This document shows, piece after piece, positions 6,468-35,330 of a stretch of 64,000 nt of DNA (position 1 is its first letter; every line of letters begins with the position of its first letter). The stretch covers positions 64,390 to 128,389 of the forward strand of contig CAWKPA010000003.1 of assembly GCA_963851365.1 (NCBI GenBank), given 5' to 3'. The notes under the pieces are model-generated. The model ran no database searches and had not been told where the DNA came from. It worked only from the letters and a program-made list of their open reading frames with translations. Source of the stretch: an uncultured delta proteobacterium (GTDB taxonomy: Bacteria; Desulfobacterota; Binatia; DP-6). A program made the translations under genes and the position numbers.

Positions 6468-6494
6468 AGCGGAGGGGGGGAGATTCGAACTCCC
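6468..6494 (-). repeat. 27-bp direct repeat identical to the 3' end of tRNA-Ser (T-arm plus acceptor 3' strand), the distal att site of the island
   Basis: agcggagggggggagattcgaactccc is identical to 35242-35268. No matching acceptor 5' strand (cccctcc) lies upstream, so it is a fragment and not a second tRNA gene. Imperfect similarity continues about 30 bp further left. Confidence 0.8.
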
Positions 6495-6882
6495 TTATCA
6501 GAAGATGCCGAGACGCGCCGGAAACGCTGGAAACCGTTGTGCCGCATGGGTTTCTTGCATCGCGAAGCCATTGGCCGAAAGAGGCCGAAAGCGGCCATTC
6601 TTGACCTAGAAGAGTGCACAAAAGGTGCACAGCAGCGACCGGATACGTGGCTCGTACCCACCCGGAATGAGCTCATGCCGCCCAAGATGCAGGCTGAAAC
6701 GAAGGGCTCGCACAGTGGTCGTCGCCTTGTGCAGGACGTCCTCGGACGCGACGAACTACATGGGGCAGGTGAGCTAGTCGCCACGGCATCCTACATGACA
6801 CTCGCCCCGAAACGACCAGCAAAAGTAGTCGAGGCGCAGGCTGCAGTGCTGCCGCCTGTGCGGGGTTGATCGGGACGGAGCA

Positions 6883-7125
6883 GTGGGGTCGATGCGGTGT
6901 GGCGGGATGACCATCCTCGATGCGCTCGCCGACCCGGCGTTGTTCGCGCCGCACTTCCGGATGCCGACGTGGGCGCCGTGGCGGACCGCCTCATCGAAGT
7001 TCTTATCCGCCCTCCCACATGATCGCGCGCAAATCCGGCCGGTCCACCGCGACGACGAAGCGCGGAAGACCATCTGCCTCGACGTCGCGCCGGAGCAGAA
7101 CGACGGCCAGCCCTGTTTGCCTTGA
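6883..7125 (+). other. short ORF with a possible phage terminase-large-subunit-like N-terminal motif; degraded
   Basis: MTILDALADPALFAPHFRMPTWAPWRTASSKFLSAL resembles the N-terminal segment of the terminase at 33154 (VVCDPVRFARGLL...). Downstream frames are broken and there is no clear domain. Confidence 0.15.
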
Positions 7126-8289
7126 AATCCTTGTCTGCCTCGTTCCCCTTGCGGATGATCCCGATGGTCACGTCCTGTGGGCGCTGACGAACTCGATGGT
7201 GACTGGTTGGACGTTGATCAACCTGGCGGCATCCTCCGAACAGACCCGCAGCTCGGTGGAGTTCAGCGGAGAAGGATACCAACCGCGATAGGCTCGTTCG
7301 ACGAGATGGCGGGACTGCACGAGGTCGTTCCAGATGGCGGCGGGGATATGTACACAGGCGACGCCCCCCTCATCGGGACCTCCGCGTACCAGGGCATTTG
7401 CGGAATGATTGTAGACCGTATCGAGGCGGCCGCGGGATCACGCGACATCAGTCCGCCGGCGCCGACGTCTTGCGATCGCAGGAACTGACCGGCCACCAAG
7501 CGCACATTGCTCTGCACACCCCGATAGACGAGCATCTTTGTGCCGATGCAGGGCGGCGGTGGCGTCAGCAGCCAGATTGGTGGCGGGCTTTCGCTCGGCC
7601 GCAGCGGGCGTAAGGGCATGACGACCTCCGCGTCAGGATTTCGTCGCAGCCTAGCAAGCGAGAAGGCGTCCCCACAACTCATCCTCGTCATCCGGAGGAT
7701 TGTCAGCCACCTCGGGCTCCCCTGATGGCCGACGCATCCTCGTCGGAACACCCTGCCCGCCCCGCCCGCCCACGACTCGACGCAGCTCGCGGCGCACCTG
7801 CAATCGCTGCTCATGGACCTCGGGCTGGAACGCCGGGCGAAGCCGGTGCCCGACTTGCAGTCCTAGCTCGCGGCGAAGGGCACCGGCGGGGAGCCGATCT
7901 CGAGACCCGGGTCGTGCAGCGCACCGGCAGCATCGTCTTGGTCGCGCACTGGGAGCCCGGCGTGGTGGAGTTCGCCGTCTACGACGAGGCGGTCCAACCC
8001 GAGCGGGTCGAGCACTGCGGAGCGGGCATTGCGGACTGGCGGATCGACCCGCGCGCACCGGTGTTCCGTCGCTGGCAGTGATTTCTGGGATCGCGGAACC
8101 GCTCACCGACCGCGTGTATGAGCTCTCGCCGCGCCGCCCACTGATTGCACCTGGCCATCGCTGGCCTCCTCGGTCCCGCTGGTAGCGGATTCCGTGAGGC
8201 AACGGCCCGCGCTCGGTAACGAATCAGCTGCGGCAATGCGATGGAGAGATGTAATTGTCGCTCGGCGCCCCTCGCGCGACTGAGCTTCT

Positions 8290-8697
8290 CTACATGACGC
8301 GCTTGCAGTCGAAGGTGTCGCCAGACTCCAGCGAATGCCATGTCATGGTCTTAGCCCTCACATCGAAGAGCGAGAACGCGTACCCGTCCTCCAACGTGAT
8401 CCGAAAATCGGGGCCCTCTGGCCCGTCAGACTCCGACCGCTCAACCTTCTGAATTCGTATCGGGCCGCTATCGGTGCCGACCCGGTAGTGCGTGGTGCTG
8501 AACGTGAACTCAGACACCTCGCAATCCCACGTCCCGACGAAGGGGTACGCTTCGGCAACAGATATCGAAGCCACCTGTCTCACATTCGGGTCGGGGCGAG
8601 CAGGACCGGCAACACCCCCTCCGAGACATGCAACGAGCACGATAGCGCAGGCCATGGCGGACGCGCTTCCCGAGATATGCCATTGGCCCCTACGCAT
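8290..8697 (-). CDS. small lipoprotein, hypothetical
   Basis: MRRGQWHISGSASAMACAIVLVAC has a lipobox (LVAC). About 135 aa. It lies in a locally AT-richer patch. Confidence 0.45.
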   Translation of the reverse strand: MRRGQWHISGSASAMACAIVLVACLGGGVAGPARPDPNVRQVASISVAEAYPFVGTWDCEVSEFTFSTTHYRVGTDSGPIRIQKVERSESDGPEGPDFRITLEDGYAFSLFDVRAKTMTWHSLESGDTFDCKRVM

Positions 8698-9030
8698 TGC
8701 GGGCGCAGCGCGCAAAGGGCGGTCGTGGAGTATGGTTGCAGGAGCCGTCGAGGTGGCACCCAACTGCCCCGGAAATCGGACCTTTCAACCCGCCCGCCGG
8801 GGTCATGATTGCACGCCGAAGGGGGTCAAACTTCGCCGCCGATTCACAGTGATGCCAGCCGGAATCATGGGCGCCCCCTAGAACAACCCGTCGCGGACGG
8901 CAATCCGGCCCTCTGGTCTGCAGCAACCGGAGTCTGCGCGGAACAACGGAGCCGACCGGCCAGGTGGCGGATCGTGCAGCGAGAGAGCCGGGCCGCCCCC
9001 GGCTCCACTTCCGCCTCGCCGAACATCCTT

Positions 9031-10023
9031 CTAGACCAGAACTCGACAATCAGACGTGGGCCCGCCTAGGCTAGCGGGCGCAGCGGAAGCCGAAGTCGAC
9101 GAGCTGCGCACGACGGCTCGAAGAGCCGTAGACGACGAGCGGGCCGGCAACGGCCCGCCGTCGAAGAGGAAGTCGCCGCCGCGCAGCAGCGCACCGGGCT
9201 CCCCCGTCGTGGCCGCCCCCGCCAGGCACTGGTAGTCGCCCGTCGGGCTCACGCCGGCGCTCCACGTCCCGCACGCCGTCGAGCGCGGCACCCAGTCCGC
9301 CACCCACTCGTAGAGGTTCCCCACCATGTCGAACGCCCCGCGCGCCGACTTGCAGCTGCTGCGCGACCCGGTGGGGACCGCCGAAAGGCAGCTGCGCGTG
9401 TTGCAGTCCGTCGTGCCGTTGTCCGGCCCTGGGTCCGGCGTCCCGATCACCGCCGCCTGCCACTCCGCGTTCGACGGCAGCCGCTTGCGCGCGTTCTCGC
9501 ACGCCGCCTGCGCCTGGAACCAGGTGATGTACGCCGACGGCGTCACCCCCGGCAGGCTCACCGCGTAGATGTCGTCGGTGCAGTTCTGCCCGCTGTCGGC
9601 GCACGGCGCGTAGTCGTCGGTGAAGCCGATCCCGAGCTGCGTCGCGCCGCCCGCCACGAGATCAACGAGCGTCGCGGTGCCCCCCTGAACTTGCTGCACA
9701 AGCGTCGTGGCACCCGGCGGGATCCGCCACACGCTGGCTTCGTACTTGTCGATGCAGATGTCGCCGGATCGGACCGAGTCCGGTGGGCACGGGCGTTCCC
9801 ACTCCCATACCAACGGCCCCGGCTCCCCTGGGTCTCCCTTGTCGCCCTTTGGTCCTTGCAGACCGAGGGCCACGGGATCGAGCTGCGTTTCCGTTGGTCG
9901 GCACGCTTCGCGCAGCTTGATCGAGGTGTTGTAGGTGCCGTCGCTGCGGGGCTTGGCACAGAGCACCACCGCGTCGGCTGCGGATACGCCGAGCACGGCA
10001 GAGAGCAGCATCGTCGCCAACAA
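9031..10023 (-). CDS. secreted protein with collagen-like G-X-Y repeat and FGE-sulfatase (SUMF1-like / C-type-lectin-fold) domain
   Basis: Signal peptide MLATMLLSAVLGVSAADA. GPKGDKGDPGEPGP collagen triplets. C-terminal CENARKRLPSNAEWQAAV...FDMVGNLYEWVADW is the FGE-sulfatase domain signature. Confidence 0.65.
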   Translation of the reverse strand: MLATMLLSAVLGVSAADAVVLCAKPRSDGTYNTSIKLREACRPTETQLDPVALGLQGPKGDKGDPGEPGPLVWEWERPCPPDSVRSGDICIDKYEASVWRIPPGATTLVQQVQGGTATLVDLVAGGATQLGIGFTDDYAPCADSGQNCTDDIYAVSLPGVTPSAYITWFQAQAACENARKRLPSNAEWQAAVIGTPDPGPDNGTTDCNTRSCLSAVPTGSRSSCKSARGAFDMVGNLYEWVADWVPRSTACGTWSAGVSPTGDYQCLAGAATTGEPGALLRGGDFLFDGGPLPARSSSTALRAVVRSSSTSASAAPASLGGPTSDCRVLV

Positions 10024-10063
10024 GAGTTCATCGACGCCCCCCTATCTCTCGGCGTGAGGCCGG

Positions 10064-10990
10064 CTACGGCTCCACCGGCACCGGCCGGCAGACGTCGTCC
10101 GCTGGGTTCGCTCGGTCCACGCGGTCCACGAAGCAGTCGGCGTCGCGGCCGCGCATTGTCGGCTCGTCGTTTCTCCAGTCTGCCTTCTTGCAGGCGCGCG
10201 CACCCGTTCGCGTTGTCACATCGATCCGGGCGCAGAACTGGGTGACCGAGCAGCCGGCGTCGTCCACCGGGTCTCCAGCGGCAGTGCCAGGGCAGCGGTC
10301 GGTGGCGTTGGTCTCCCCGTCACCGTCGGCGTCAGGCAGAGGCTGAGACTCACACGCCGCAAGGTCCTGTTGGCAGATGCCGAGATTCGTCTCGCACTGC
10401 GCCTGCTCGTTGTCGCGGTCGTTGGGGAAGGGGTCGCAGGCGTCACCGATCAGATCGAATCTGCGTCCTCCTGGCTGGGGTTCGGTTCGTTCGGGCAATT
10501 GTCAGCGTAGTCGGGTACACTATCGTTGTCGGTGTCTGGTGAACTGGTCGACTCCGCATTCACAAAGATTGTGGAGAAGCCGCTGATGGTTAGGTTCTCC
10601 GTGGACAATTGAACCTGATTCCCAGCCTCATCCCTCAATATAAGCAACAGGATCGTATAGGGTCCAAGCGGACTGTACTGCGGCAACGTGACTCTGCAGT
10701 TCTGAACCGAATCCAGGACGGTCCCCGATACGATCACGCAGAAAGGTGCTCCAGACCCGCCCCCAATTGGGCTTCGGTACACCCAACCCGCGTTGTCACC
10801 CGTAAAGCCGGAGAGATTGTCGAGAATCTCAATCGGTAAGGAGATGTCGGCGGGTCCGTTGGTCGTATCCACTACTGGGGTGTTGATGACCAGATCGGAC
10901 CAGCACCGGCGGCGTCGTGTCCTCCTGCGCCTCCACGCGAAGCGGCGCGATCAGGCTAACCGCCAGCAGGACTGCCAAGGAGCGTTCGGG
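10064..10990 (-). CDS. secreted thrombospondin type-3 repeat (TSP3) protein; reading frame broken at least twice (probable indel errors)
   Basis: TSP3 Ca-binding repeats DTDNDSVPDYADNCPNEPNPSQEDAD and DADGDGETNATDRCPGTAAGDPVDDAGCS. A signal-peptide-like LAVLLAVSLIAPLRVEAQ sits near 10960 in an adjacent frame. Confidence 0.5.
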
Positions 10991-11010: not shown

Positions 11011-12094
11011 TTAGCGCGTCAGGAGCCACCCCGCACCGCGCGAACGCAGGTTGGGACTCCGTCTTGAAGCCCGCGTCGACGCTCCCGTCGCCGAAGTACA
11101 CGTCCCACGCGACTCCGGGTCAGCCTGGTAGGTAGTGGACGACCAGTAGTAATCGGACTGCGTGCACGAACACGTCATCACCGTGCACGCCGCGACGCAG
11201 CCCGTGTTGAACGCGGCGACACGGACGGGTTCACCGCCCCGTAGTTCACGAGGCTCTGCAGTTCGTTCACGTTCGGCAGCCGCCAGTCGGTGTAGCCCGC
11301 GAAGCCGCCGCCCGCCGTTCAGCGCCGCCACCTTGTCGCGAACGCGTTCGCCCAGGTGTACGTCGTGTCCTTGTCGTGGATGCTGCCGTCGTCCGACAGC
11401 TTCTCCCACATGAGCCCGGTCTTCGTGTCGGTGATCGTGCCGTCGCCGTTGTCCACGTAGGCGCGCGCGAGCCCCTTCTGCAGCTCGCCGTCCTGGCCCG
11501 TGCCGGCGCACGCGATGACCGCGCCGGCCGCGTCCCAGCACTGCGTCTGGCCGGTCTTCAGCCGCTGCCCCTGCGGCGCGGCCTGGCAGGTCGCCAGGTC
11601 GTTCTGGCAGGCGTCAGGTGCCGTGCAGGCGTGAGGCTGCCCTGCGTCGCGGTGAGGTCGATCTGGCAGGTGCCGAGATCGCCCGTGCAGTGCCGAGGTC
11701 GCCCTGACAGCGCGAGCAGGTCGCCCGGGCAGTCCGGCAGCACCCCGCCCGCCAGCGCCGTCGCCACGTTCGTCGTGTGCGTGTCGATCGCCCCCTGGAT
11801 CGCCTCTTGGTCGCCGGTGGTCTGGCACATCCCGCCCGCCTTCGACTCCAACAGCGGCCACTTCACGGCAAGCTTATAGGCGCACTTCTCCAGCGCGAGC
11901 TGGTAGGCGGCCGCGTCGCCCCTGGTGGCGAACCTCGCCTCGGCCTTATAGCGGCAGTTGGCGTAGCGGCCAGCTTCTTTGTTCTTGCTCGCCTGGCACG
12001 TCTGCGCGGGACTCACGGCGTCCGCCACGCGGGCTACTGCGCCGAGCCCCAGCACGAGCACGAGCATCGCGCCGACGCGCACCCTGGTTGCCAT
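11011..12094 (-). CDS. secreted DUF1566 (Lcl C-terminal domain) protein; split over three frames
   Basis: N-terminal signal [29 protein letters not shown]1566 core [31 protein letters not shown]...DYYWSSTTY. The ORF track splits it at 11011-11541, 11319-11861 and 11558-12364. Confidence 0.5.
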
Positions 12095-12110
12095 CGCACC
12101 CTCCCGTCGG

Positions 12111-12212
12111 GAGCGTAGGCGCGATAAAGCGGCGAAGGGCGACATAACGCCCGAACCCGGACGTTGGCGGTCCTGTCCCGCCCTGTCTCCCCTCACCCCC
12201 CCGGTTGCCGCG
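12111..12212. repeat. REP-X: ~100-bp GC-rich interspersed repeat with two 5-bp stem hairpins (copy 1, intact)
   Basis: agcgtaggcgcgataaagcggcgaagggcgacataacgcccgaacccggacgttggcggtcctgtcccgccctgtctcccctcacccccccggttgccgcgg. It recurs at 16064-16165. Copies at 20893 and 26380 are split by an IS. Confidence 0.7.
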
Positions 12213-12283
12213 GAATGGTCTGGCAGTGGATCGCCGTCGCGGTCACCTGATCGATCGGCATGCGAAGCGCCTCGATGTCCGCC

Positions 12284-12370
12284 GCCGTCACCGTCGCCGT
12301 CGTTACGGAAGGGCAGCGGTCGGGTAGACGCGCCGGGCGGCAGGCTGGTAGGGGTTGAGGGCAACTCGCC
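12284..12370. repeat. ~85-bp inverted repeat, left copy, flanking sulfatase/hydrolase module 1
   Basis: gttacggaagggcagcggtcgggtagacgcgccgggcggcaggctggtaggggttgagggcaactcgcccttttgaatcctct is the reverse complement of 15250-15335. A shorter relative is at 12412-12470. Confidence 0.7.
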
Positions 12371-12479
12371 CTTTTGAATCCTCTATCGGCTTTCGCCGAG
12401 AGCCGATGTGCGGTCGCTATTACGGAACGGCAGCGATCGGGTAGACGCGCCGGGCGGCAGGTTCGTAGCGACCGCCGCC

Positions 12480-13481
12480 TCAGACGCTGCGATAGCCGCC
12501 GTTCACCCAGGCAAGCAGCATCTCGGCGAACTCCTCGGCGTTGTCCTGGTAGCTGAAGTGGCCGCAGCGTTCGAAGATGCGCAGTTGACTGCGCTTCAGC
12601 CGCTGGTGCAGGCGCCGGGCATTCTCTTCAAGCAAAAACACGTCGAGGTCACCCCAGAAGATCTGCACCGGAAGGTCGAGGCCGGCCAGGTGGGGGTCCA
12701 CGGTTGCCAGGTTCTCGGGGTAGGTCTTGAACCAGTAGGTGATCGGACCCATCCGGCCGTCGTAGGAAGCGACGTAGTCGGCCACCTCGGCGGCATGGGG
12801 CACGTAGTTCACGCAGGCCAGACGGTAGGCCCCTTCGACAAAGGCCTGGGCGCCCGCGACACGGAAGATCGTGCGCCAGAAGCCGGAGTCGACGGCCTTG
12901 TTGATGATGCTGCCGTTGCTCGTCGGCAGGATGCCCGGGCCGTCACCAATCAGCAGGCTGGCCAGCTCGTGCTTCTGGTGGATCGCGTAGTGCAGCGCGG
13001 CGGCCATGCCGACGTCGGGCCCTACCATGTGGATATGCTTGAGCCCGAGCTCGCGCACGAACTCGACGAGGAAGCGGCTCTGCGCCTCGAAGCTCATGAA
13101 CTCCAGCCCGCCGCTGCTGCGGCCGAAGCCGGGCAGGTCGAGCGCGACCAGCCGGCAATGCGGCGCGAGCGTGCCCCAGATCGCGTCGAAGCACAGGATG
13201 CTCTGCGGCAGCGGGCACAACAACAGCACGACCGGCCCGTCCTTCCTTCCGCCCTGCGCGATGCGCACCTGGGTGCCGGCCACCGTGCGCATCTCGGTCT
13301 TCATGGTGAACCGGGCCGGGCGCGATTCGGCCCGGCCGGCGCCGGGGCGTGCCGCCTGCTTGATCTGCGAGAACTCCGGTGTCACGGCGAGCAGCACGCC
13401 GGCGTTGAGCTTGCCGAAAGGTCCGATCGGGTCGGGGGTGGTTTCCATGCGCGTCTCGATCTCTGGGATGGAGCGGATCAA
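12480..13481 (-). CDS. alpha/beta hydrolase fold protein (paralog 1)
   Basis: 333 aa: LLLCPLPQSILCFDAIWGTLAPHCRLVALDLPGFGRS...HMVGPDVGMAAALHY...ERCGHFSYQD. About 80% identical to the protein at 25347-26315. Confidence 0.75.
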   Translation of the reverse strand: MIRSIPEIETRMETTPDPIGPFGKLNAGVLLAVTPEFSQIKQAARPGAGRAESRPARFTMKTEMRTVAGTQVRIAQGGRKDGPVVLLLCPLPQSILCFDAIWGTLAPHCRLVALDLPGFGRSSGGLEFMSFEAQSRFLVEFVRELGLKHIHMVGPDVGMAAALHYAIHQKHELASLLIGDGPGILPTSNGSIINKAVDSGFWRTIFRVAGAQAFVEGAYRLACVNYVPHAAEVADYVASYDGRMGPITYWFKTYPENLATVDPHLAGLDLPVQIFWGDLDVFLLEENARRLHQRLKRSQLRIFERCGHFSYQDNAEEFAEMLLAWVNGGYRSV

Positions 13482-15248
13482 GGCTTACGGCCATCGGGCT
13501 CGATGAAGCCGTGCCACGGGCTCCAGTTGTCGGCGACCGGCACGAGGCCCTTCTGGGCAGCGAACTGGTCGTAGATGGCGATCAGCTTCTTCAGCCGCTC
13601 GGGTTGCGCGGCGTCGAGCGGCTGCGTTTCGCCCGGGTCGTTGCGAATGTCGTACAGGTGCCACTGGCCGTCGCCGTACATGCCCGGTCGCACCCGCATC
13701 GCCTTGTAGTCGCCGGCCACGACATAGCCGTTGCCGAACAGCTCGAAGACCACTGGCTGCGCTTCGGTGCGCGGCTGCTCGGCCCGGCCTTCGAGGAAGC
13801 TGCGCATCGAGACGCCAGAAGGCGCGGCGATCTTGCGGCCCCGGTAGCCCTGCGGCGCCGGCTGGACCCCGGCGTAGTCCAGGATCGTCATCGGCAGGTC
13901 CTTGACGTTCGCGTACTCGGCGCTCAACTGCCCGCGACGTGGGGACGGCTGGCTCCGCGGCGGGACCACGATCAGCGGCGTGCGCACGCCGCCTTCACCG
14001 ATGAACCACTTCCACCACGACAGGCCGCCGGTCACGGCATTGGCGAAGTCGGTGCCGATGAAGGCGTAGGAATCGCCCCAGCCGATGTGCTCGAAGGCCT
14101 GGCTGAAATTCGCGCTGCACCCACTTCGTGGCGCCCGGATTGCTGAGCGCGCCCTGGTCGTCGAAGCCCTCGGGGCCGTTGTCGGACAGGTAGACGATCA
14201 GCGTGTTGTCGAGCTGGCCGGTCTCGCGCAGGTAGTTCAGCAGCAGGCCGATGTGATGGTCCTGCGACTCCATCATCGCCGCGTAGGTGGCCATGACGCG
14301 CGCGAAGCGCCGCTTGTCGTCCTCGCTCAGCGACGACCAGCTGCGCAACAGGTGGTTCTTGCCGGCGTCGGGATACGGCGCGTCCTTCGGGAGGATCCCG
14401 AGCCGCTTCTGCGCCTCGAAGCGTTCGCGCTTCAGGCCCTCGAAGCCGAGCGCGTAGAAGTGCTGCTCGTACTTGTCGACCAGGAAGTCCGGCGCCTGCA
14501 CCGGCGCATGCGGCGTGGTGTAGGCGACGTAGGCGAAGAACGGCTTGCCGGTTGGGCGGCCCTGCTCCAGGTAGCTGAGCAGCTTGGCCGTGTACAGGTC
14601 GTCGGAGAAGATGCCCGTGGGGCGCACGACCCGCTCGCCGTTCTCGAAGTAGGGCTCCCTCGGGATCCTTCCGGCCTTGACGTCGGCGGCGGCTTGCGGG
14701 TCCTCGAGGTCGACGTGGAACACGCCGTCGTTCCAGTGGTTCGCGCCGCCGGTATAGATCCCGTAGCTGCGGTCGAAGCCCCACTGGGCAGGCGGCTCGC
14801 CGCCGTGGCGCGTGCCACCGAGGTGCCATTTGCCGACCATGTAGGTGCGGTAACCGGCGTCTTTCAGCAGCTCGGCGATGGTGGCCGTGGTGCGGGTCAG
14901 GTAGGCCTCGTAGCCGCGCTTGCCCTTGGCGCCGGGATAGAGCGAGTAGTCGAACGCGGCGAGCCCGATCTCAACCGGGTTGTTGCCCGTCAGCAGCATG
15001 GCGCGCGTGACCGAGCAGACCGGCGAGGCATGAAAGCGCGTGAACGTGGTCCCGTGCTGGGCCAGACGGTCGATGGTCGGCGTGCGAGTCGCCGCTCCGG
15101 TGAAACCGAAGTCTCCGAACGCGGCGTCGTCGGCGACGATCAGCAGGACGTTCGGCCTCGTTTCCGACGCTGTCTGTGCGTGCGCGGGCGCTGTTGGGGT
15201 GCAGAAACAGGCCCACGCGGCCAACAAAAACAGGGTCAAGGATCTCAT
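13478..15248 (-). CDS. sulfatase-family (alkaline-phosphatase superfamily) enzyme, paralog 1; split across two frames near 14000-14050
   Basis: Signal peptide, then NVLLIVADDAAFGDF...FTRFHASPVCSVTRAMLLTGNNP...YMVGKWHLGG. The C-terminal half is in ORF 13478-14035. About 80% aa identical to 23551-25311. The active-site pentapeptide is C-S-V-T-R, not the canonical C-x-P-x-R. Confidence 0.75.
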
Positions 15249-15249
15249 C

Positions 15250-15335
15250 GGGAGCGGATAGAGGATTCAAAAGGGCGAGTTGCCGTCAACCCCTACCAGC
15301 CTACCGCCCGGCGCGTCTACCCGATCGGTGCCCTT
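15250..15335. repeat. ~85-bp inverted repeat, right copy
   Basis: Reverse complement of 12284-12370. Confidence 0.7.
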
Positions 15336-15608
15336 CCGTAACGGAAGTTGGAGAGCGGTCTGCCGATTCGAGCTCGCGGGAACAGCGGTCGGCATACAGC
15401 AAGAGTCTCGATCTCGAGCTTGGCCCCCGCATTCCTTTGGGGCCGGGATGCGGAGCTTCAGCTCGAGGGCCCCTTTGCCACGCGCTTCGCGACGCGTCTG
15501 AGCTCGATATCACCTTGCCCCCTATGGACGTGCCCCGGTACCATTACACGGTAGCCACCCAGCCAGAGGTGTACAATGCCTAGATGCAGTCCCCGGACCG
15601 CCTCCTGC

Positions 15609-16070
15609 ATGGCTCGCGGCGCAGTCGCCCTCGCGATCGTCTGGTTCGTAGCAGTGTCGGGACAGGCTCGGGCGATTCCTCTGACGGATTGCACGGAGCG
15701 TATGGAGGGCGTTTTCACAAGCGCGAGTGGGGCGCGCAATCCGCTGCGACTCCGCATCGTGGTCACGGGCCCCGGGTTCGCCCTGTCGGGACGTTTCCGC
15801 TGCCGGCGCGGCTCCGCCGGTCGATGTGTAGTGCCGGTGGCGAGCGTCGACGGTCACCTGGTCGGGGATGCCGCGACGACGCGTTATCAGGTGTCCTTGT
15901 CTCGCGGCCACGGGGACGCGTATCGGCTGCTCTGCCGGCTGGACGGCACGGCACCGTTTCTCTTCGGCCTCTACCTCCCAGCTCTTGAGGGTACCTACAC
16001 CTGCGATGACGGTGGGGGATTGAGTGACCGGGGCACGTTTCAGCTCGTGGGTGTGGGCCGGGGTGCGTAG
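15609..16070 (+). CDS. hypothetical small secreted protein
   Basis: MARGAVALAIVWFVAVSGQARA is a signal peptide. Cys-rich, about 150 aa. No recognised domain. Confidence 0.3.
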   Translation: MARGAVALAIVWFVAVSGQARAIPLTDCTERMEGVFTSASGARNPLRLRIVVTGPGFALSGRFRCRRGSAGRCVVPVASVDGHLVGDAATTRYQVSLSRGHGDAYRLLCRLDGTAPFLFGLYLPALEGTYTCDDGGGLSDRGTFQLVGVGRGA

Positions 16071-16165
16071 GCGCGATAAAGCGGCGAAAGGCGACATAAC
16101 GCCCGAACCCGGACGTTGGCGGTCCTGTCCCGCCCTGTCTCCCCTCACCCCCCCGGTTGCCGCGG
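16064..16165. repeat. REP-X copy 2 (intact)
   Basis: Near-identical to 12111-12212. Confidence 0.7.
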
Positions 16166-22440: not shown

Positions 22441-22648
22441 ACCCTACCTCCCCCCCCGGGGCTGCCGCGGACGAAGACGCAGGCGATGCTGCCGAGCGAG
22501 GACGCGGTGCTCTTGCTCCTCTTCGGCCTCCTGATGAGCGGGCAGATTCGCTCGCGCAAGATCGACGGCTGGCAGGAGCTGCCGGCGGTCATGGCGACGC
22601 GGAGAAAGGCTGCGTAGCCGCGGATATCAACTCGGACTCACGCGCGGA

Positions 22649-25311: not shown

Positions 25312-25346
25312 GTCACGTCATTCAACCCAATGGAATTCACGCAGCC

Positions 25347-26315: not shown

Positions 26316-26433
26316 GCGGGCGCACCAGCTCTGTACAAACATAGAGGCAGCATGACCGATACGTACCAGACTGATTCGGAGCGTAGGCGCGATAAAGCGG
26401 CGAAGGGCGACATAACGCCCGAACCCAGACGTT

Positions 26434-27918
26434 GACGTGTAGGCCCCAAGTGCAAATGTCCGCTTTCCCCAAAGTAGAGATGTCCGCCTGGAGCCCCCAG
26501 AGGTGGCGCCATGGCGGACACGCTGGGGCTGACCATGGGGGAGCTGGACCGACTGCAGATCCTGACTCGGCTCGCGGAGCGCCGGCTGACCCAGCGCCGG
26601 GCCGCCGCGCTGCTCGGGCTGGGCACGCGCCAGGTGCGGCGACTCTCCCGCGCTTTCCAGGGCGACGGCGCCGCGGCGCTGGCCTCGCGCCGGCGGGGTC
26701 GCCCGAGCAATCGGCGGCTGCCCGCGCGCGTCCGCGACCGGGCACTGCGCCTGGTCCGCGCGCGCTACGCCGACTTCGGGCCGACCTTCGCGCACCAGAA
26801 GCTCACCGAGGACCACGGCCTCGTCCTGTCGGTCGAGACGCTGCGCGGCGGGCTCATCGCCGCCGGGCTCTGGCTGCCCCGCGCCCAGCGCGCCCGCCGC
26901 AGCTACCCGCCGCGGCCGCGCCGCGCGTGTCCCGGCGAGCTCGTCCAGATCGACGGCTCGGAGCACGCCTGGTTCGAAGACCGCGGGCCGGCCTGCACGC
27001 TGCTCGTGTACGTCGACGACGCCACCAGCCGGCTGATGGAGCTGTGCTTCGCCGAGGTCGAGTCGACGTTCGACTACTTCCGTGCGACGCGCCACTACCT
27101 CGAACGACACGGGAAGCCGATGGCCTTCTATAGCGACCGGCTGAGCGTCTTCCACGTCCACGCGCGCGACCGCGCCCAGGGCGGGCCCGGGCTGTCGCAG
27201 TTCGGCCGGGCGTGTCGGGCCCTCAACATCGACCTGCTGTGCGCCACCAGCCCGGAAGCCAAGGGGCGCGTCGAACGGGCCAATGGCACCTTGCAGGACC
27301 GGCTCGTGAAGGAACTGCGGCTGCGGGGGCTCAACGATCCCGTCGCGGCCACGCCGTTCCTCCCCGCGTTCATGGCCGACTACAATCGCCGCTTCGCCAA
27401 GCCGCCCGCCGTCGCCTACGACGCGCATCGGCCGCTGCGCCCGGAGGACGACCTCGACCAGGTCTTCACGCTGCAGACGACGCGCCGGATCAGCCGCCAG
27501 CTCACCGTGCACTACAAGCGCGACCTCTACGTGCTCACCGACACGCGTCGCGACCCGCCGCCTGCGTGGGGCCACCGTGGACGTCCGCGAGGCGGAGGAC
27601 GGCACCGTCACGTTGCACGCCCAGGGGCGTCCGCTGGCGGCCCGCCTCTTCCCGAAAGATCACGCGCAGATCGCTCCGGGAGCCGTCGTCGCGTACCCGC
27701 ATCTCGCCGGCGCCTTGACCTGGATCGCGGCGCAGCAGCGCGAGCGCGACCAGGCGCGGCTCGCCAATCCCAAGCTCAGCGGGCGCGAGAAGCAGCGGCT
27801 GCGCGCGGGCCGGCCGCTGCGTGTCCCGGCCTCCCCCACGGAGTGAAACCGGACATCTCTACTTGGGGCAAAGGCGGACATTTCTACTTTGTGTTGACAT
27901 GACATGACATGACATGAC
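26434..27918 (+). mobile_element. ISNCY-family (IS1202-like) insertion sequence, copy B, with near-intact transposase (26511-27846, one frame break near 27560)
   Basis: A 463-aa ORF with MADTLGLTMGELDRLQILTRLAERRLTQRRAAALLGL (HTH), GELVQIDGSEHAWFEDRGPACTLLVYVDDATSRL, FYSDRLSVFHV, ATSPEAKGRVERANGTLQDRLVKELRLRGLND, FMADYNRRFA. The true C-terminus ...RVPASPTE is in ORF 27577-27846. Imperfect ~45-bp terminal IRs. It is inserted in a REP-X copy (26380-26433 and 27919-27951). Confidence 0.8.
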
Positions 27919-28179
27919 GCCCCGACGCCCCTCCCCCCCCGGCTGCCGCGGCGAAGCCACAACGAGGAACGGCCGCATCGGGCGCTGGGGCGGAAGCCCC
28001 CACGCACTTTCTCCCGCGGCCGTCGGAACCCCGAGAGTCCAGGAATGCGGTGTCTACTTGACGGGGCTGACTACGCCTCGGCCGGCCTGTTGGCGAACAC
28101 GTAGTCGTACGACTCGACTGACGGATTCGGTGCGCGAGGGCCAACGCGAGGCATCCTCAGATGATCCGAGAGGCTGGAG

Positions 28180-29223
28180 TCAGTCCGCCAGCATAGGCGT
28201 CAGGAGCTTTCGCAACCGTGCAATCCAGTCCTTGTCGGTGACCTCAAGATAGTGGAAACTCTCATCCACGGCCTGTCGGAGCTTAGCCTGGAATAGGCTG
28301 CCGTGCTGGTAGGATTCGACCAAGAAGATGACCGCCTGGTCACCCTCGATCGCATGACAGTAGTACCCGAAACCGTTCGGAGGCTGCGTGTAGAAATGGC
28401 CCGGCTGCAAGACAGTATCGAACCGTAGGGCTCCCTCGAACGTCCAGTCGGCACCCGTGACGACGTTCTGGTGCCTGTAGGTGATCATCATGCGCGCAAA
28501 CACGTTGGGGTCGAGACGATTGTCTTTGCCCATGACGCGCGCTTCCTGAACTTCACAGTCGAAGGACACGCGCTTGACCTTTGCTTCATTCTCAAGGGCG
28601 CGACCGGTGGCTAGTACCGGCTCCGGGAATACCCACTCCTTGGAGAAATTCGTCTGCTTGACTGGAGGAATACGATCGTCGTGAGTAAGCACGTCAATCA
28701 CACGCTCGACGGTCATCGACTCGCCCGTACCCTGCAAGAGTGTGTTCCTTATCTGGAAGTGTAGGCGCGTCGGCTCCTCGGAGAGAACGATAGGTGGTCC
28801 GTCGACTACCTCAAGGCGCACGTTGCGGATGAAGAGCGCGGGGACAGTCCTGTCTTGTACGCCCGAAGGCGATGCCGGGGCAGCCTCACTGATCGTAACG
28901 AGATCAATGCCGTGGCGGCGAGCTACCGTGATCGCACCGTCCTGGAACCCGGACGTCGATACCATGATCGCCTTGTTCGCGTGGACGTCGTGCGACTTCG
29001 TCACAAAGGCATCGACGTCCAATGCCTTGACGGCCTGACTGGGCTGATCCCTACATTCGACGACCACGAGATAGTGATAGCCACCGGCATCGAACCGAAC
29101 CGTAACGTCGAACTGCCGATCCGAAATCTCCTCGTCCCACGTGACCACCGCGCCGTGATGTTCGGCGCGTTGAATCGCCGCGATGAGCTGTTCAAAGGCT
29201 CGCCAACCCGACGCCGTGATCAA
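28180..29223 (-). CDS. protein with N-terminal restriction-endonuclease-like (Mrr_cat / PD-(D/E)xK) domain fused to a ~230-aa C-terminal domain of unknown function
   Basis: 347 aa. N-terminus GWRAFEQLIAAIQRAEHHGAVVTWDEEISDRQFDVTVRFDAGGYHYLVVVECRDQPS...AIMVSTSGFQDGAITVARRHGIDLVTI matches the Mrr catalytic-domain pattern. The C-terminal region has no family I recognise. Local GC is well below the window average. Confidence 0.55.
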   Translation of the reverse strand: MITASGWRAFEQLIAAIQRAEHHGAVVTWDEEISDRQFDVTVRFDAGGYHYLVVVECRDQPSQAVKALDVDAFVTKSHDVHANKAIMVSTSGFQDGAITVARRHGIDLVTISEAAPASPSGVQDRTVPALFIRNVRLEVVDGPPIVLSEEPTRLHFQIRNTLLQGTGESMTVERVIDVLTHDDRIPPVKQTNFSKEWVFPEPVLATGRALENEAKVKRVSFDCEVQEARVMGKDNRLDPNVFARMMITYRHQNVVTGADWTFEGALRFDTVLQPGHFYTQPPNGFGYYCHAIEGDQAVIFLVESYQHGSLFQAKLRQAVDESFHYLEVTDKDWIARLRKLLTPMLAD

Positions 29224-29904
29224 GACGCGATCCTCCAGCGGACGCTTGTCGAGGAAAGTACGAGATGCGCGGAGCGCATAGACGTAGCAATGAAGACGAG
29301 CTGCCCTCCGCCGCGATAGGGTTCGCGGTGGACCACGGGGTCAACCGAGACGGTGCCCCAAAACAGCGAGGAGGGCAGCCCGATGGAATGCTACGTGGGA
29401 TTGGACGTGCACAGCAGTGGGCCACGCGTGCGAGGAGGTCGCCTGCCGCTGCGGTCACGGCACGTTCATAGCAGACTGTGTGTAGAATGCAAGAGATGTG
29501 ACGGTGCTAGGTCACGCCGCGCTCCGTGTTGGGCGCGGGACACCCTGGAGCAAGCGTGCGAGCTCGGCGCCGTCGATCCGTACGCCTGGACCGTCGCCGA
29601 GCAAGAGTTCGCGGTCAATTGTCCGCTTCCCCTGGCTCACGCCGCCTCATATCCGTCGCACCCCACGATCTGGAGGGGGTGCTTCCTGTTCGTCGACTCG
29701 CGGTTTCTGCTCCCCGCTTCTTTCAGCGCCAGCCTCGCGACCGGACCGGTCTCCCGGCTTCTTCGCCTTGCGGTTCGCTCGAGGTCACTGCGATCAACTC
29801 CCTCCAGGATTTTCACCCGTTCATCACCTCCCTGCTGGGCACACAACTAAGCCGCTTCGCGGCAGGCCGGAGCTCGCCGCGCAGGCGCAGGGGGGCCATA
29901 CACG

Positions 29905-30621: not shown

Positions 30622-31257
30622 TCAGGGCGCCACGGCCAAGTGCGCGGTCTTGGCCGTCGCTTCGGCCACGGCGGCCGCCGGCGCGATGTGCTGGAGGTAG
30701 ACGCTCGTCGTGTGCAGCGAGCGGTGCCCGAGGAGCTGTTGGATCGCGTTCAGCGACGTCCCGCTCTGCACCTGGGCAAGCGCCCAGCCGTGGCGGAGGC
30801 CGTGCGGGTGGACGCGCTTCTCGATGCCGGCTTTCGCCGCGAGCCGCTTGCAGAGCGTCCTGACGTAGGAGTCCCACAGCGGCTCGCCGCGGAGCGTGCA
30901 AAAGAGCGGATGCCGACCCGTGAGCCGGAGCCGCTTCCGGCAGTCGAGCCAGCGGTCTACCGCCTCGGCCGCGTCGCTGGGCAGCGGCGCCGTGCGCGCC
31001 TTGTCGCCCTTCCCGTGGAGGATGCGGAGCGAGCCACCTGCGGGGTCGAGGTCTTTCGGAAAGAGCGCCAGCGCCTCCGAGATGCGCAGCCCGCTCCTGA
31101 ACAGCACAGCCAACAGGGCGCGGTTGCGGATGCCGGTCGGCGCACGCCGCGAGCAGGCGGCACGGAGCGCCTCGACGTCGGCGAGGCCGAGCGGTTCGGC
31201 GGGGAAGCGGCGGGTCGGTTTCTTCCGTCGGGGCGCGGGGGTGCGTTTCCTGGGCAT
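30622..31257 (-). CDS. tyrosine recombinase (XerD-like small integrase)
   Basis: 211 aa: RNRALLAVLFRSGLRISEALALFPKDLD...ILHGKGDKARTAPL...HPHGLRHGWALAQVQSGTSLNAIQQLLGHRSLHTTSVYL. It carries the R, K, H-x-x-R, H and Y catalytic residues. Confidence 0.8.
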   Translation of the reverse strand: MPRKRTPAPRRKKPTRRFPAEPLGLADVEALRAACSRRAPTGIRNRALLAVLFRSGLRISEALALFPKDLDPAGGSLRILHGKGDKARTAPLPSDAAEAVDRWLDCRKRLRLTGRHPLFCTLRGEPLWDSYVRTLCKRLAAKAGIEKRVHPHGLRHGWALAQVQSGTSLNAIQQLLGHRSLHTTSVYLQHIAPAAAVAEATAKTAHLAVAP

Positions 31258-31356: not shown

Positions 31357-33154
31357 CTATGGCGTTGATCGGGGCTGCGGGTTCTCTTGCCCGGTGTCCA
31401 CCGTCGGCGCCGGTACCGGCGGCACGGCGGATGCGGCCGGACACCGGCCAGCCGGGCGGGGCCGGCGTGACCCCGCCCCTACGGCGGACCCGGTCTGCGG
31501 GGATCGGCGCAGAGACCTCGCACGCGGGCACGCCGCGTCCCAGTCACTCAGGCGCCGGGTCCAACCACCACAGCCAATGTCCGCGGCCGTGACGAGCAGG
31601 TGGCGCAGGGCACAGCGCGTGCCGCCACTCCGATCCCGCGTGAGGGAGCTGCAGTCGGCACACGTCAGGCGGTCCTGGGAGTCGAGGTCGAACGGCAGCG
31701 CGTTCCGAAGCTGCCGATCATACGGGCGCAGCACCTGGCCGACGGCCTCGCTCGGGTCCCCCATCAACAGCAACTGGCTCGTCACCGGGCGAGCCAACGC
31801 CAGCATGACCGCCTCCGCCCGATCCGGGCTCTTCACGCCGCGCTTCCGGGCGTCCTCCTTGCGTTCGATCTCGATCTGGCCGCGCGCGGTGTGCCGGTAG
31901 CGGATGCCGGCCAACTGCGCGATGGTGCGCTCGTCGGTCAGCCCGGCGACGTCGCCGTCCTGGAAGCGCGTGCCGGAGCCCCCAGTAGAGCTCGGCCTTG
32001 AGGTTCGCGATACCGCTCGCGATCGCTCGACCGCTCGCCGACGTTCACGAAGCGCACGGGGTAGCCCAGATCTTCCAGATGCTTGGCGAAGTAGTGCCCG
32101 ATCCCGGCGACGTCGACGTTCACGGCCTCCAAGGCGGTCGCCGATAGGGGGCCAGGGTGGCGGCGACGGCGCCCCGAGGGTCGGCCTTGCCCACGCCTGC
32201 AACGTCGAGGATCGCCCGGCCTCCGCGAGTCACGAGCACGGTTTCGTCCTCGCCCGGACCCGCCACGTCCAGGCCCGCCGTACAGCCGGCCCGCCGCAGT
32301 CGGCACGCTGGCCGGCGGGCCGCCTCGTCGAGCCAGGCGAGCGAGATCAGGGCATCGTCGGCCTGCGTCGGGAACTGCCCGAGGACGCGCGCCTCCCAAG
32401 CGGGTGACCTGGCCCCCATTCCGCATACTTCTCCCGCACCCAGCGGCGCGTGACGAGGTAGGGACGGGGGCAGTCATCCAGCGCGGGATCGGAGCAGGGC
32501 GAGCGACTCGTCGAGGTTCAGCCCGGCGAGATTCGGACTGTCGAACGCGGAGATCGTGAACGTGCACCAGCCGTCCCGGTTGCTCGTGAAGGCGTCGTAG
32601 AACGGCCCGCTCGCGATCGTCGGGTTCCCGAGCGCGAGCACGCGCACGTCGCCGCCCGCGCGAATGCCCTCGATCGCCTCCCAGATCTCGGCCTTCACCC
32701 CCGGCGCCTCATCGACGACGATGAGGATGCGGCCATGGAAGCCCTGAAACCGCACGCCCTCGTTCGTGGACAGGCCGATGGCGTAGTTGCCGGGGCCGAT
32801 CCGCAGTTCGGTCTTGTTCAGCGGCGGAAAGGCGATGCGGCTGGCCTGCGCGGCGCGGTGAATCTCGCCCCACAGCAGCTTCTCCACCTGCGTCCACGTC
32901 GGCGCCGTCGTGACGACGACGCCGTCCCGGTAGCGGGTCACGAACCAGAGGACGGCCAGGGCGGCGACGAAGGTCTTGCCGCTCGCATGGCACGCCTTGA
33001 CGGCGGTGCGGGGCCGGCGCGCCACCGCACGGAGGATGGCCTCCTGGAGGGGCCAGACGTTCTGGCAGAGCAGGCCGCGGGCGAACCGGACCGGGTCGCA
33101 CACGACGGCCGCGAGGGCGGCGGCCTCGTCAGCCTGTCCCGGCGCGCTCGGCAT
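31357..33154 (-). CDS. phage terminase large subunit (prophage remnant); split over three or more frames
   Basis: N-terminal ATPase domain with P-loop VKACHASGKTFVAALAV (ORF 32474-33679). C-terminal nuclease-domain segments VLVTRGGRAILDVAGVGKADPRG (32120-32419) and ...RKEDARKRGVKSPDRAEAVMLALA (31357-32202). Confidence 0.6.
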
Positions 33155-33471: not shown

Positions 33472-33602
33472 CTGGCCCCCCGTACGCGATCACAAGCATA
33501 GGCGAAAACAACGCGAAACTCCAGAGGACGTACAAAGCACCGAGGTCCTTCGCAGGGGGAGGTGTTTCGGAGCCACCAGCCGGTGGAACACGCCGAAGCT
33601 TG

Positions 33603-33747
33603 AGCGTGTAGAACCCGCTTCGACGGTAGCCTCGCCGGTGCCCGACCGCTGGGCAAAGGACGCCGTGATCCGTGGTCACAACGCCCCCCTGAACCGGCCA
33701 AAGCCCGGCTAAAGCGTAAGATTCAGCCGTAAGTACTTGAATCTACG
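33603..33747. repeat. ~145-bp imperfect direct repeat (copy B), about 90% identical to the sequence immediately 3' of tRNA-Ser
   Basis: agcgtgtagaacccgcttcgacggtagcctcgccggtgcccgaccgctgggcaaaggacgccgtgatccgtggtcacaacg...cttgaatctacg is paralogous to 35097-35241. It lacks the tRNA 3' segment. Confidence 0.7.
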
Positions 33748-33762
33748 CGCAGGACAGCGGAG

Positions 33763-34718
33763 ATGGGCGAGTGGAGCTTCCCGACCTGGCAGACCGCGCC
33801 TTGCAATTGGCCAGACGTCCCCGCACCAGTTCTTCACCTCATGCCTTCCTCGCCGCCGGACGGGTCGTTCCACGTTCCGGACGACCATGACTCAGCCATC
33901 CTGAGAGTTGCCGACCCGCTACTCGACGAGGTCGTGAACTTTGGCTTGGTACTCCACGGGCGGGTTTCCAACGTCCCCGGCCAGCAGGAGCACCACTTGG
34001 CCGTGCACTTTCTCTACCGACGAAACTTCTGGATCTCACCGACGCCTTCCGCCTCCTCGCGCGGGAGTTTGCTGCAGGTCCGGGCAGACTTCAGCTCCGG
34101 GCGGTTTTCGAAGCGGTCCTGGGCCTTGAGTGGATCGCGAGCGAGAATTCGGAGTGTCGCGGCATCGCATACCTCGTCGGGGACACCCTAACGCAGCTCG
34201 CTTTCTGGGACAGAATCATCGAATCGTCTATCGGGAACAAGCTGCCGGAGACTTTCTCGACTATGATGGCCACTGTGACTGCGAGGCTGGAGCGGCCAGG
34301 GTGGGCGGAGGCGTATCAGGAGTTCATCGCCGAGCGTGGTCGGCAGCGGAAGAGGCCACGCCCTCGATGGTGGCCGCCTTGGTACTCGCTCGGCGGTGGC
34401 CCGTCCGATATCGCAGGGCTCGCCGCTCGTTGCGGGCGATCGGGCGACTACGACCGACTCTACAGACACTGGTCACAGGCCACTCACGCGGTTGACGTCG
34501 TGTGGCAGATGAAGCCAACGGGCGATGGACTCCGTCCGCTTCGCTCTCCGATTCTCTTAGCCCCCGCCGTAAGTCTCGCCGTCGAATTCGCCACCAACGC
34601 GATGAAGTTGACGCTCCACTCGTTCGGATTGTCAGACAGGGAGGCTATTGTCCAAGAGTGGCTGGTGCGCGAAGGGATCAACGCCCGACTCTCAACTGCT
34701 CGAGTCAATGGCGCCTGA
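33763..34718 (+). CDS. hypothetical protein (about 318 aa if the two frames are joined near 34020)
   Basis: ORFs 33763-34191 and (34020)-34718 join into one plausible protein (...FEAVLGLEWIASENSECRGIAYLVGDTLTQLAFWDRIIES...HWSQATHAVDVVWQMKP...). No family recognised. GC is lower than the surroundings. Confidence 0.3.
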
Positions 34719-35096
34719 CGTAACGTAAATCCTGGACTCCACACGAGGCCGTCAGTCGCGACTTTGCTCGCCGTCCGCGCGGCACCGCGCGGCGCTCGAG
34801 GCCGAGGTCGCGAAGCACACCCTGGAGGTGGTTCGCGAGCGCCGTCCGCTCCTTCACAACGGGCAGCACAGACTTCGTCTTCAAGTTCACCAGCGACCTC
34901 TGCGCGAGCAACCACGCGTCGAGGGAATCGAGGAGCAGCTTGGTTCCGCACCGCCATCTCGACGAGTTGCTGCTGCGCCGTCGAGGGGTTGCCACCGAGG
35001 TCGCGGATCAGCTCGGCCCGCCAGGCGGCCAGCTACTTACCGAGGGTGGTTCGGCGATCGATCACCCTCGGCCCGAGCTGTCGTAGCGTCGCCTTT

Positions 35097-35241
35097 AGCG
35101 TGCAGAGACCCGCTGCGACGATAGCCGCGCCGGCGCCCGACCACCGGGCCAAGGACGCCGTGATCCGTGGTCACAACACCCCCCGAGCCGGCCAAAGCCC
35201 GGCCAAAGCATAAGCTTCAGCCGTAAGTGCTTGAATCTACG
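35097..35241. repeat. ~145-bp direct repeat (copy C) abutting the 3' end of tRNA-Ser
   Basis: Paralogous to 33603-33747. Its tRNA-proximal ~30 bp also resemble the bases left of the 27-bp att copy at 6440-6467. Confidence 0.7.
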
Positions 35242-35243
35242 AG

Positions 35244-35330
35244 CGGAGGGGGGGAGATTCGAACTCCCGAGGACTTGCGCCCTGGCGGTTTTCAAGACCG
35301 CTGCCTTAAACCGGACTCGGCCACCCCTCC
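35244..35330 (-). tRNA. tRNA-Ser (anticodon UGA), class II with long variable arm
   Basis: Minus-strand sequence GGAGGGGTGGCCGAGTCCGGTTTAAGGCA GCGGT CTTGAAA ACCGC CAGGGCGCAAGTCCTCG GGGAG TTCGAAT CTCCC CCCCTCC G. Acceptor stem 7 bp, D-arm GCCGAG..AAGGC, anticodon stem 5 bp with loop CTTGAAA (TGA), T-loop TTCGAAT. Coordinates may be off by 1. Confidence 0.85.

Follow-up and report, generated by a model that had tools for sequence, protein, structure and literature searches.

A probable decayed tandem array of integrated elements at the tRNA-Ser(UGA) gene beside hslO in an uncultured Binatia-type bacterium

Genomic islands anchored in tRNA genes are mapped by Islander and TIGER (Hudson, Lau and Williams, 2015, PMC4383910; Mageeney et al., 2020, PMC7192596). 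The locus described here, the tRNA-Ser(UGA) gene beside hslO in a 64,000-nucleotide (nt) stretch of DNA from an uncultured delta proteobacterium (the window), shares with such islands an intact tRNA gene at one end, a displaced direct copy of its 3′ fragment at the other end and a tyrosine recombinase gene between them, and its block of identity begins at the T stem, as in the T-stem sublocation class to which 1836 of 3919 Islander islands belong (PMC4383910). It differs from them in that the integrase family linked to this site is represented outside the interval, by a dead gene, that no uninterrupted reference site was found for the window, and that the machinery of the element is largely destroyed. 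We consider it probable that this tRNA gene is an integration hot spot and that the window holds a decayed tandem array, in which the relic of an old integrase was displaced by a later insertion of 28.7 kb.

Tandem arrays are a documented outcome of repeated integration at tRNA genes (PMC7192596, PMC4383910), and 125 tandems are listed by Islander (PMC4383910). The window resembles arrays of integrative genetic elements in having, at 6380-6640, an internal core between the arm of an older element (unit B) and a newer element (unit A). For a tandem call, Islander needs a fragment and an integrase of its own for every member (PMC4383910). Unit A has the fragment at 6468-6494 and the recombinase gene intM; unlike the members of an Islander tandem, unit B has an integrase pseudogene and no distal fragment in the window, none being found in 1-5389; it may lie beyond the window or be lost.

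Lambda-type integrases carry an N-terminal arm-binding domain and have arm-type sites in attP (Pfam PF12167, PF14659, PF00589). All three domains are present in intact homologs of the window's integrase relic, whereas the window copy lacks the core-binding domain; the paired repeats described below, which lie at fixed offsets from the core and have an element-specific sequence, resemble arm-type sites and would be bound by the integrase. A further likeness is to the CIME-type elements (cis-mobilizable elements) of streptococcal integrative and conjugative elements, which lack an integrase, are flanked by attachment (att) sites and accrete beside an integrase-bearing element. Unit A is likewise att-bounded, has no integrase of the site's family and stands in tandem with an integrase-bearing neighbor, but unlike a CIME it contains the short recombinase gene intM.

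The 27-bp repeat and the DNA on its two sides

A single tRNA gene, tRNA-Ser(tga), was found in the window by ARAGORN at 35243-35330 (-), and Rfam RF00005 placed it at 35244-35330 (-) with 56 bits. The 27-mer AGCGGAGGGGGGGAGATTCGAACTCCC occurs exactly twice in the window, at 6468-6494 and 35242-35268, and because both copies are on the plus strand it forms a direct repeat. On the tRNA strand the block comprises the T stem-loop (GGGAG TTCGAAT CTCCC), the 3′ acceptor strand (CCCCTCC), the discriminator G and 2 nt more. No third copy was found in the window at up to 3 mismatches, the 16-nt T-arm core, with up to 2 mismatches allowed, likewise gave no sites but these two, and 100 dinucleotide-preserving shuffles contained no match to the 27-mer. 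On the side of the tRNA body the identity ends abruptly (GAGGAC versus TTATCA) and on the opposite side merely a loose motif carries on, and the match accordingly does not belong to a dispersed repeat of greater length. The tRNA gene is directed with its 3′ end into the interval, which is the geometry expected of a displaced fragment, and the interval between the cores (6495-35241; 28,747 bp) lies inside the 2-200 kb bounds of the TIGER/Islander resolution step (PMC7192596). The repeat and the tRNA gene together are a genuine att signature of a site-specific insertion of ~28.7 kb. An earlier reading of the letters without database searches (the sequence-only reading) had claimed a perfect recurrence of the tRNA 3′ end, with an attL/attR-type signature, and had named a longer dispersed repeat unrelated to tRNA genes as its refutation; both claims are borne out by the two exact copies in the same orientation, and no such repeat was found.

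Left of the distal core, and outside the 6468-35330 interval, an open reading frame (ORF) at 5569-6609 (+) with a Phage_integrase domain (Pfam) runs up to and through the core. The Arm-DNA-bind_2 (E 1.2e-7) and Phage_integrase (E 1.3e-16) domains of this integrase were found in separate frames. It has no start codon and begins right after the stop of an ordinary-looking META/HslJ-like gene; relative to its homologs, residues 125-191 (the SAM-like core-binding segment of about 67 amino acids) are deleted and the frame is shifted. The homologs at metagenome loci L122 and L181 are, unlike the window copy, intact three-domain ORFs of lambda type; intact homologs have ~400 amino acids with Arm-DNA-bind_2, Phage_int_SAM_3 and Phage_integrase domains, and one of them aligned over 98% of its length with the integrases of lambdoid Shiga toxin (Stx) phages at 27.5% identity. 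Judged by its domains and frames, the integrase at 5390-6300 is a dead tyrosine integrase of lambda type. An exact-protein look-up of the ORF as delimited here returned no record.

At 18 metagenome loci a homolog of this integrase (38-65% amino acid identity) ends at most ~110 nt from the 27-mer or reads into it; 17 of these loci adjoin a complete tRNA-Ser, and the relative orientation is that of the window in all 18. When Pfam was run on the ten ORFs of 6791-8808 no match was obtained, and thus no integrase lies just inside the distal core.

Phage Mx8 of Myxococcus xanthus has its attP within the integrase gene, at the 3′ end, and integration alters the C-terminus of Int (Tojo et al., 1996, as summarized in PMC4383910). 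Similarly, the integrase frame runs through the 27-bp core, encoding ..AEGGRFELP.., in the window and at seven homologous loci (L122, L182, L179, L160, L158, L150 and L167). Unlike in Mx8, the remaining homologs either pass through the core in a different frame or end as much as 49 nt ahead of it, and it may thus be chance, in GC-rich DNA with few stop codons, that produced the overlap; the G+C content of the window is about 70%.

The G+C fraction was 0.676 in 1-6467, 0.671 in 6495-35241 and 0.717 in 35331-64000. Tetranucleotide usage ratios were calculated for each 4-kb segment and correlated with those of the core, the segment itself being left out; the correlation was 0.87-0.92 for core segments and 0.66-0.84 for every segment left of the tRNA (0.84 for 1-4000 and 0.81 for 4001-8000). 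Both profiles, which the sequence-only reading had proposed as a check, show a jump at the tRNA and pass 6468 without one. Because an integrase pseudogene and an arm of the same family lie directly left of the left repeat, and the composition of 1-6467 is island-like, that repeat is not the border between chromosome and island, and the interval is best read as one unit of a decayed tandem array. From the idea of an island delimited by the repeat, the att signature and the tRNA-side end are thus retained, and the left repeat as a core boundary is given up. The accessory region extends to at least 5390 and, by its composition, probably to the left end of the window.

A scan of a metagenome collection for the 27-mer gave at least 120 loci (L081-L200), on which all survey counts rest. 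Among the 120 loci listed, 113 copies lie in a complete tRNA-Ser, 5 are cut by contig ends and 2 belong to longer tRNA remnants; no match was found in 2.9 million IMG/VR viral contigs. When 160 nt on the tRNA 3′ side from several loci and from both window junctions were aligned, a common layout was observed: 11-12-nt repeats stand as a tandem pair 30-60 nt or so from the core, against which lies a loosely kept GTAAGTGC..GAA.TTAC motif. The sequence of the arm repeat varies from element to element and its positions are fixed. Of 108 tRNA-Ser 3′ flanks of 110 nt, 21, both window junction flanks among them, had a tandem repeat with all 10 positions identical (10/10) and a period of 11-12 nt at -47..-57 or -77/-78 from the core; as controls, no such repeat was seen in 540 shuffled flanks, and 6 of the 101 flanks from the tRNA 5′ side had one.

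In the window, CCGGAACCTTT occurs twice left of the distal core (6413-6423 and 6425-6435). The proximal arm of unit A has CGGCCAAAG twice (35189-35197 and 35200-35208) and a GTAAGTGC..GAATCTAC motif adjoining the core, and the same architecture, in some cases with the same repeat, was seen at loci L082, L098 and L148. Since the integrase family has an arm-binding domain, the tandem repeats are most simply regarded as putative arm-type sites; those of the surveyed loci have the look of element-specific arm sites belonging to a single large integrase family. Just inside the distal core, a pair of GGCCGAAAG at 6573-6591 is close to the proximal arm repeat, and GAGTGCACAAAAGGTGCACAGC at 6612-6634 matches the arm repeat of a related contig (L236, see below) at 20 of 24 positions; these repeats suggest that 6495-6640 may be the other attachment arm.

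Relatives at hslO and the order of events

The nearest species-level relatives by HslO among GTDB species genomes were metagenome-assembled genomes labeled Candidatus Binatia or "uncultured delta proteobacterium". The gene order of window 35466-48451 is common to seven Binatia-type relatives, and because of this synteny the right-hand side is conserved chromosome, in agreement with the sequence-only reading. In these seven (HslO 55-82% identical) no tRNA was found within 10 kb of hslO and no gene from window 1-35242 was found, and the DNA downstream of hslO varies among them. A protein search gave two closer relatives, L236 (HslO 92%) and L234 (HslO 87%; a 151-kb contig). In L236 the tRNA-Ser(UGA) lies 99 bp after hslO, and its alignment with the window (84.6% nucleotide identity) runs from 36506 down to 35244, halting exactly at the tRNA 3′ end. 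In L234, hslO is followed by a small glyoxalase gene and then by tRNA-Ser(UGA) with the identical 27-mer and a third kind of arm repeat; identity with the window is 83% across hslO and 89% across the tRNA, and divergence begins ~20 nt past the tRNA. The DNA past the tRNA 3′ end is different in the window genome, L236 and L234. As judged from these alignments, the relatives support the tRNA-side boundary by comparison, though not as an empty site.

Because hslO is followed by tRNA-Ser also in relatives with 87% and 92% HslO identity, the tRNA is native to this spot in the clade. Its arrival together with the island, which the distant relatives without a tRNA at hslO might suggest, was rejected on the same ground. 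In a relative with HslO at 84%, a MazE-type antitoxin gene follows hslO and no tRNA adjoins hslO.

The region downstream of hslO is variable lineage-wide (L001-L007, L234, L237 and L238). At the position of the glyoxalase gene of L234, a minus-strand gene of unknown family is found in L237; L238 has MazE-type antitoxin genes downstream of hslO, L004 and L005 have about 5.4 kb of extra DNA after hslO relative to L002, and unrelated genes follow hslO in L001, L003 and L006. Within the core of the window, the G+C fraction dips to 0.66 at 40001-43500, where L234 has 71% nucleotide identity only, compared with 83-90% in the neighboring stretches; a long ORF at 41089-43533 (-) has odd codon-position G+C values (first 0.56, third 0.85).

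Upon integration of this geometry, the element supplies the arm that adjoins the complete tRNA, and the corresponding side of the displaced fragment is occupied by whatever DNA the tRNA had bordered before. Since the DNA left of the displaced fragment is itself an integrase with an arm of the family, an older element would have been in place before the 28.7 kb arrived. We infer the following order of events. An element with a lambda-type, arm-binding integrase would first have inserted into the T-arm/acceptor end of the tRNA, leaving its integrase and attachment arm right against the tRNA, as is seen intact in many soil contigs. The ~28.7-kb DNA, with an attachment site of the same family, would then have recombined with the regenerated tRNA, so that the first integrase and a 27-bp copy of the tRNA end came to lie 28.7 kb from it; the ends of this second unit would be marked by the perfect repeat, whose left copy would be the joint between the units. 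Both units would then have decayed, the first to a 1.1-kb relic with a dead integrase, and the second would have retained a duplicated arm, a putative small-terminase fragment, a frameshifted large terminase and a short recombinase, while insertion sequence (IS) elements bracketing sulfatase/hydrolase modules would have remodeled it. The same inference covers the integrase that moved the 28.7-kb unit and whether this unit arrived in one step or several; the candidate enzymes are the short recombinase that it carries, an integrase since lost, or the integrase of the neighbor before its decay.

Several observations weigh against a tandem array formed in this way. No empty or singly occupied site was met in any relative examined, and none joins the tRNA to DNA left of 6468 or 5390, so that no insertion event is shown directly; the sequence-only reading had proposed to look for strains lacking the island, and the relatives at 87-92% HslO instead have the tRNA followed by other arm-bearing DNA. 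The window does not include the distal end of the older element, and 1-5389 may be element, other accessory DNA or chromosome; since the META gene is joined at its end to the integrase relic, the remainder of the older element has either been deleted or is located within 1-5389. The recombinase IntM is short and of another type than the integrase of the site, and no homolog of it was detectable at the 120 tRNA-Ser loci. The second copy of the proximal arm has no core, and a third integration is just one reading of it. Both junctions rest on one metagenome assembly; in two other samples this genome is represented by short contigs that break off within the tRNA and ahead of the left core. Finally, at loci with the arm type of unit A the DNA next to the tRNA (up to 12 kb) lacks an integrase, which leaves room for integrase-less, satellite- or CIME-like elements.

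A wider idea can be put forward tentatively, although we regard it as unlikely in its entirety. The paired repeats (~-55 or -78) would be element-specific arm sites of a large undescribed Arm-DNA-bind_2 integrase family in soil bacteria, and a second class of elements with the same arm layout would have a terminase-side gene in place of an integrase next to the tRNA and would borrow those integrases in trans.

It is quite unlikely that the interval arose by stepwise accretion of at least three small, mostly integrase-less (satellite- or CIME-like) units together with IS-borne modules, the internal cores being lost later, so that several former units would now lie between the two 27-bp copies. 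Such a history would account for the duplication of the proximal arm 1.5 kb inward, for the putative small-terminase-like fragments in opposite orientation near both ends, for the two different tandem-repeat pairs just inside the distal core, for the IS copies or IS ends around both sulfatase modules and for the loci of this arm type without a nearby integrase. However, no internal core copy survives at 2-3 mismatches, and the arm duplication is equally explicable as a local duplication. Stepwise accretion refines the tandem-array model rather than contradicting it.

We find it highly improbable that the 27-bp copies bound a single 28.7-kb island with original chromosome left of 6468. In its favor are the exact direct repeat in the correct orientation, a size typical of islands and a tyrosine recombinase gene within the interval, although of another type than the integrase of the site; these are the basic features by which Islander recognizes an island (PMC4383910). 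Yet the integrase pseudogene and the arm left of the distal core, of a family that abuts tRNA-Ser, cannot be original chromosome, the composition has no step at 6468, and the interior is a mosaic with a duplicated arm. An artefact or coincidence (chance match, dispersed repeat or chimeric metagenome join at a conserved tRNA segment) can hardly be credited: the 27-mer is conserved in tRNA-Ser of many soil organisms (>120 metagenome loci) and could in principle bridge contigs, and both joints lie close to the ends of independent short contigs of the same genome, but the 100 shuffles yielded no copy at all, 17 other contigs have next to this tRNA just what lies left of the distal copy, arm-type repeats lie on both sides of the distal copy, and an overlap of 27 bp is shorter than the k-mers usual in final assembly.

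Contents of the interval and of the left flank

The features on which the tandem-array reading was built, and the other genes of the interval and its flanks, are collected in Table 1.

Table 1. Coordinates of features in the window, from left to right
Feature	Position	Strand	Evidence or remark
Contents of left flank: partial P-type ATPase, Mutator transposase fragment, metal hydrolase, TetR, META/HslJ-like protein	1-5389
Relic of earlier element (probable unit B): integrase pseudogene and arm	5390-6467	+	Pfam; alignment to homologs; repeats
Integrase pseudogene	5390-6300	+	Pfam; arm-binding domain 5390-5731, catalytic domain 5734-6300 in other frame
Core copy 2, displaced tRNA 3′ fragment, without tRNA body after it	6468-6494	+	Exact direct repeat
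DNA just inside distal core	6495-6640		Two tandem-repeat pairs; probable other attachment arm
FGE-sulfatase domain after short collagen-like G-X-Y run	9031-10041	-	Pfam
TSP3-repeat ORFs	10064-10950	-	Pfam
Lcl_C/DUF1566 ORF	11319-11861	-	Pfam, weak match
Abhydrolase and sulfatase module	12109-16165	-	Abhydrolase 12480-13484; sulfatase 13478-15266, split over two frames
S8 subtilase, 1243 amino acids	16417-20148	+
TetR regulator	20214-20828	+
IS-bracketed module	20890-27956	+	IS, CoA-transferase, sulfatase, abhydrolase, IS
IS copies	20890-22476 and 26377-27956	+	Direct repeats, 94% identical
CoA-transferase, N-terminally truncated	22538-23563	+
Sulfatase	23551-25311	+
Abhydrolase	25347-26315	+
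Mrr_cat restriction-endonuclease-domain ORF	28180-29340	-	Pfam, E 7e-11
Group II intron D1-D4 fragment	29631-29744	-	Rfam RF02001, 37.7 bits versus gathering score 32
intM, tyrosine recombinase of 211 amino acids, catalytic domain only	30622-31257	-	Pfam Phage_integrase, E 7e-36; PHROG integrase
Large-terminase pseudogene, at least 3 reading frames	31793-33130	-	PHROG phrog_2, E 1.4e-19
Second proximal-arm copy	33599-33747		88.7% identical; 1.5 kb further in; no recognizable core after it
Small ORF with motif ..LRDLGLERRAVP	34705-35007	-	Motif match to tRNA-adjacent small ORFs of L125 and L148
tRNA-proximal arm of 28.7-kb unit (A)	35108-35241		Tandem repeat and core-adjacent motif; the stretch duplicated at 33599-33747 is 35093-35241
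Core copy 1 (T arm, acceptor strand, discriminator, 2 nt more)	35242-35268	+	27-mer identity block at tRNA 3′ end
tRNA-Ser(UGA), integration target	35244-35330	-	ARAGORN and Rfam; 3′ end toward island
hslO (Hsp33), first conserved core gene on tRNA 5′ side	35466-36335	-	Pfam HSP33, E 6e-83; synteny

Prophage remnants had been claimed for the interval, and the large-terminase pseudogene shows that they are real: it was recognized by PHROG, has 36-41% amino acid identity to phage terminases, and matches the IMG/VR contig L221 with 70% nucleotide identity over 1331 nt, its protein matches falling in several frames. The viral contigs with this terminase have nothing else in common with the window, and no other phage structural gene matched. 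Of the packaging, head, tail and lysis modules of an intact prophage, only this pseudogene and a putative small-terminase fragment were found. The latter is the small ORF between the two arm copies; it has no Pfam or PHROG match, and from its motif we take it to be a fragment of a P27-type small terminase. A second fragment with the motif lies in the opposite orientation at 7762-7845 (+). At L125 the small ORFs are followed by a protein that is presumably a small terminase of the Terminase_2 type. The intM gene, the sole integrase-type gene within the interval, adjoins the large-terminase pseudogene, and its product has 43-54% amino acid identity to genes in 13 of 20 matched IMG/VR viral contigs. 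A degenerate core after the second arm copy was also sought; only the 9-nt AGCGGAGAT is present there, which was not convincing.

The two sulfatase/abhydrolase pairs (12480-15266, minus; 23551-26315, plus) are inverted with respect to each other and 77.5% identical. The module at 12109-16165 is bracketed by solo IS ends (12109-12213 and 16061-16165) and also by 104-nt inverted repeats (12301-12404 and 15240-15343). By their identity and borders, the two pairs are to be seen as copies of one module bracketed by IS copies or IS ends. The IS end (60 nt, 93-97% identical) is present in four copies, the two solo ones and two that belong to the full IS copies (20890-20994 and 26377-26481), which together bracket both sulfatase/hydrolase modules and suggest composite-transposon-like movement of these modules. 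A repeat of ~59 nt (12296-12354 and 15290-15343) flanks the sulfatase/abhydrolase pair of the 12109-16165 module in inverted orientation and is also found in L234 at 17312-17370 with 81-86% identity; it may be a small mobile or repetitive extragenic palindromic (REP)-like repeat within the lineage.

The group II intron fragment lies just upstream of the Mrr_cat ORF on the same strand. Its 3′ part (D5/D6) was sought after the Mrr ORF and none was found nearby, and no reverse transcriptase was detected; the fragment is probably a truncated intron remnant. Most of the cargo named by the sequence-only reading (two sulfatase/hydrolase pairs, a subtilase, an FGE-collagen protein, TSP3 proteins, a nuclease and IS elements) was recovered with Pfam, the DUF1566 match being weak and the nuclease an Mrr type. 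The DNA between the repeats is indeed accessory in content and composition, as had been proposed, but it is not one coherent element; it is pieced together from the remains of a prophage, modules bracketed by IS elements and a piece of an intron.

In the left flank, homologs of the META protein (best 64% identity) were found in unrelated neighborhoods. The Mutator-family transposase fragment at 1629-2294 (+) covers profile positions 204-377 of 379, and independent Logan contigs of the same genome start at ~2280, the end of this fragment, which hints at a repeated IS that breaks assemblies. The exact HslO and META proteins were found in two Logan samples, on contigs of 2-4 kb only.

Meaning of the locus

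The locus provides a precisely mapped integration hot spot, if the tandem-array reading holds, in an uncultured and little-studied lineage of Binatia-type metagenome-assembled genomes. It illustrates that a perfect tRNA-fragment repeat can mislead on where foreign DNA ends: here the repeat would be an internal joint of the array, with the integrase of the site itself lying beyond it. Otherwise this is a stack of mobile elements of a conventional kind, now decayed, and no general view is changed by it. A more general by-product is the arm-repeat signature common to many elements that target this tRNA-Ser; the survey of 120 loci supplies natural combinations of integrase, core and arm repeat for one conserved attB, with a possible use in work on integrase specificity. 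If the tentative idea of integrases borrowed in trans were true, tRNA-Ser(UGA) in Binatia-type bacteria would be an accretion site that moves secreted sulfatase, FGE and protease modules between genomes.

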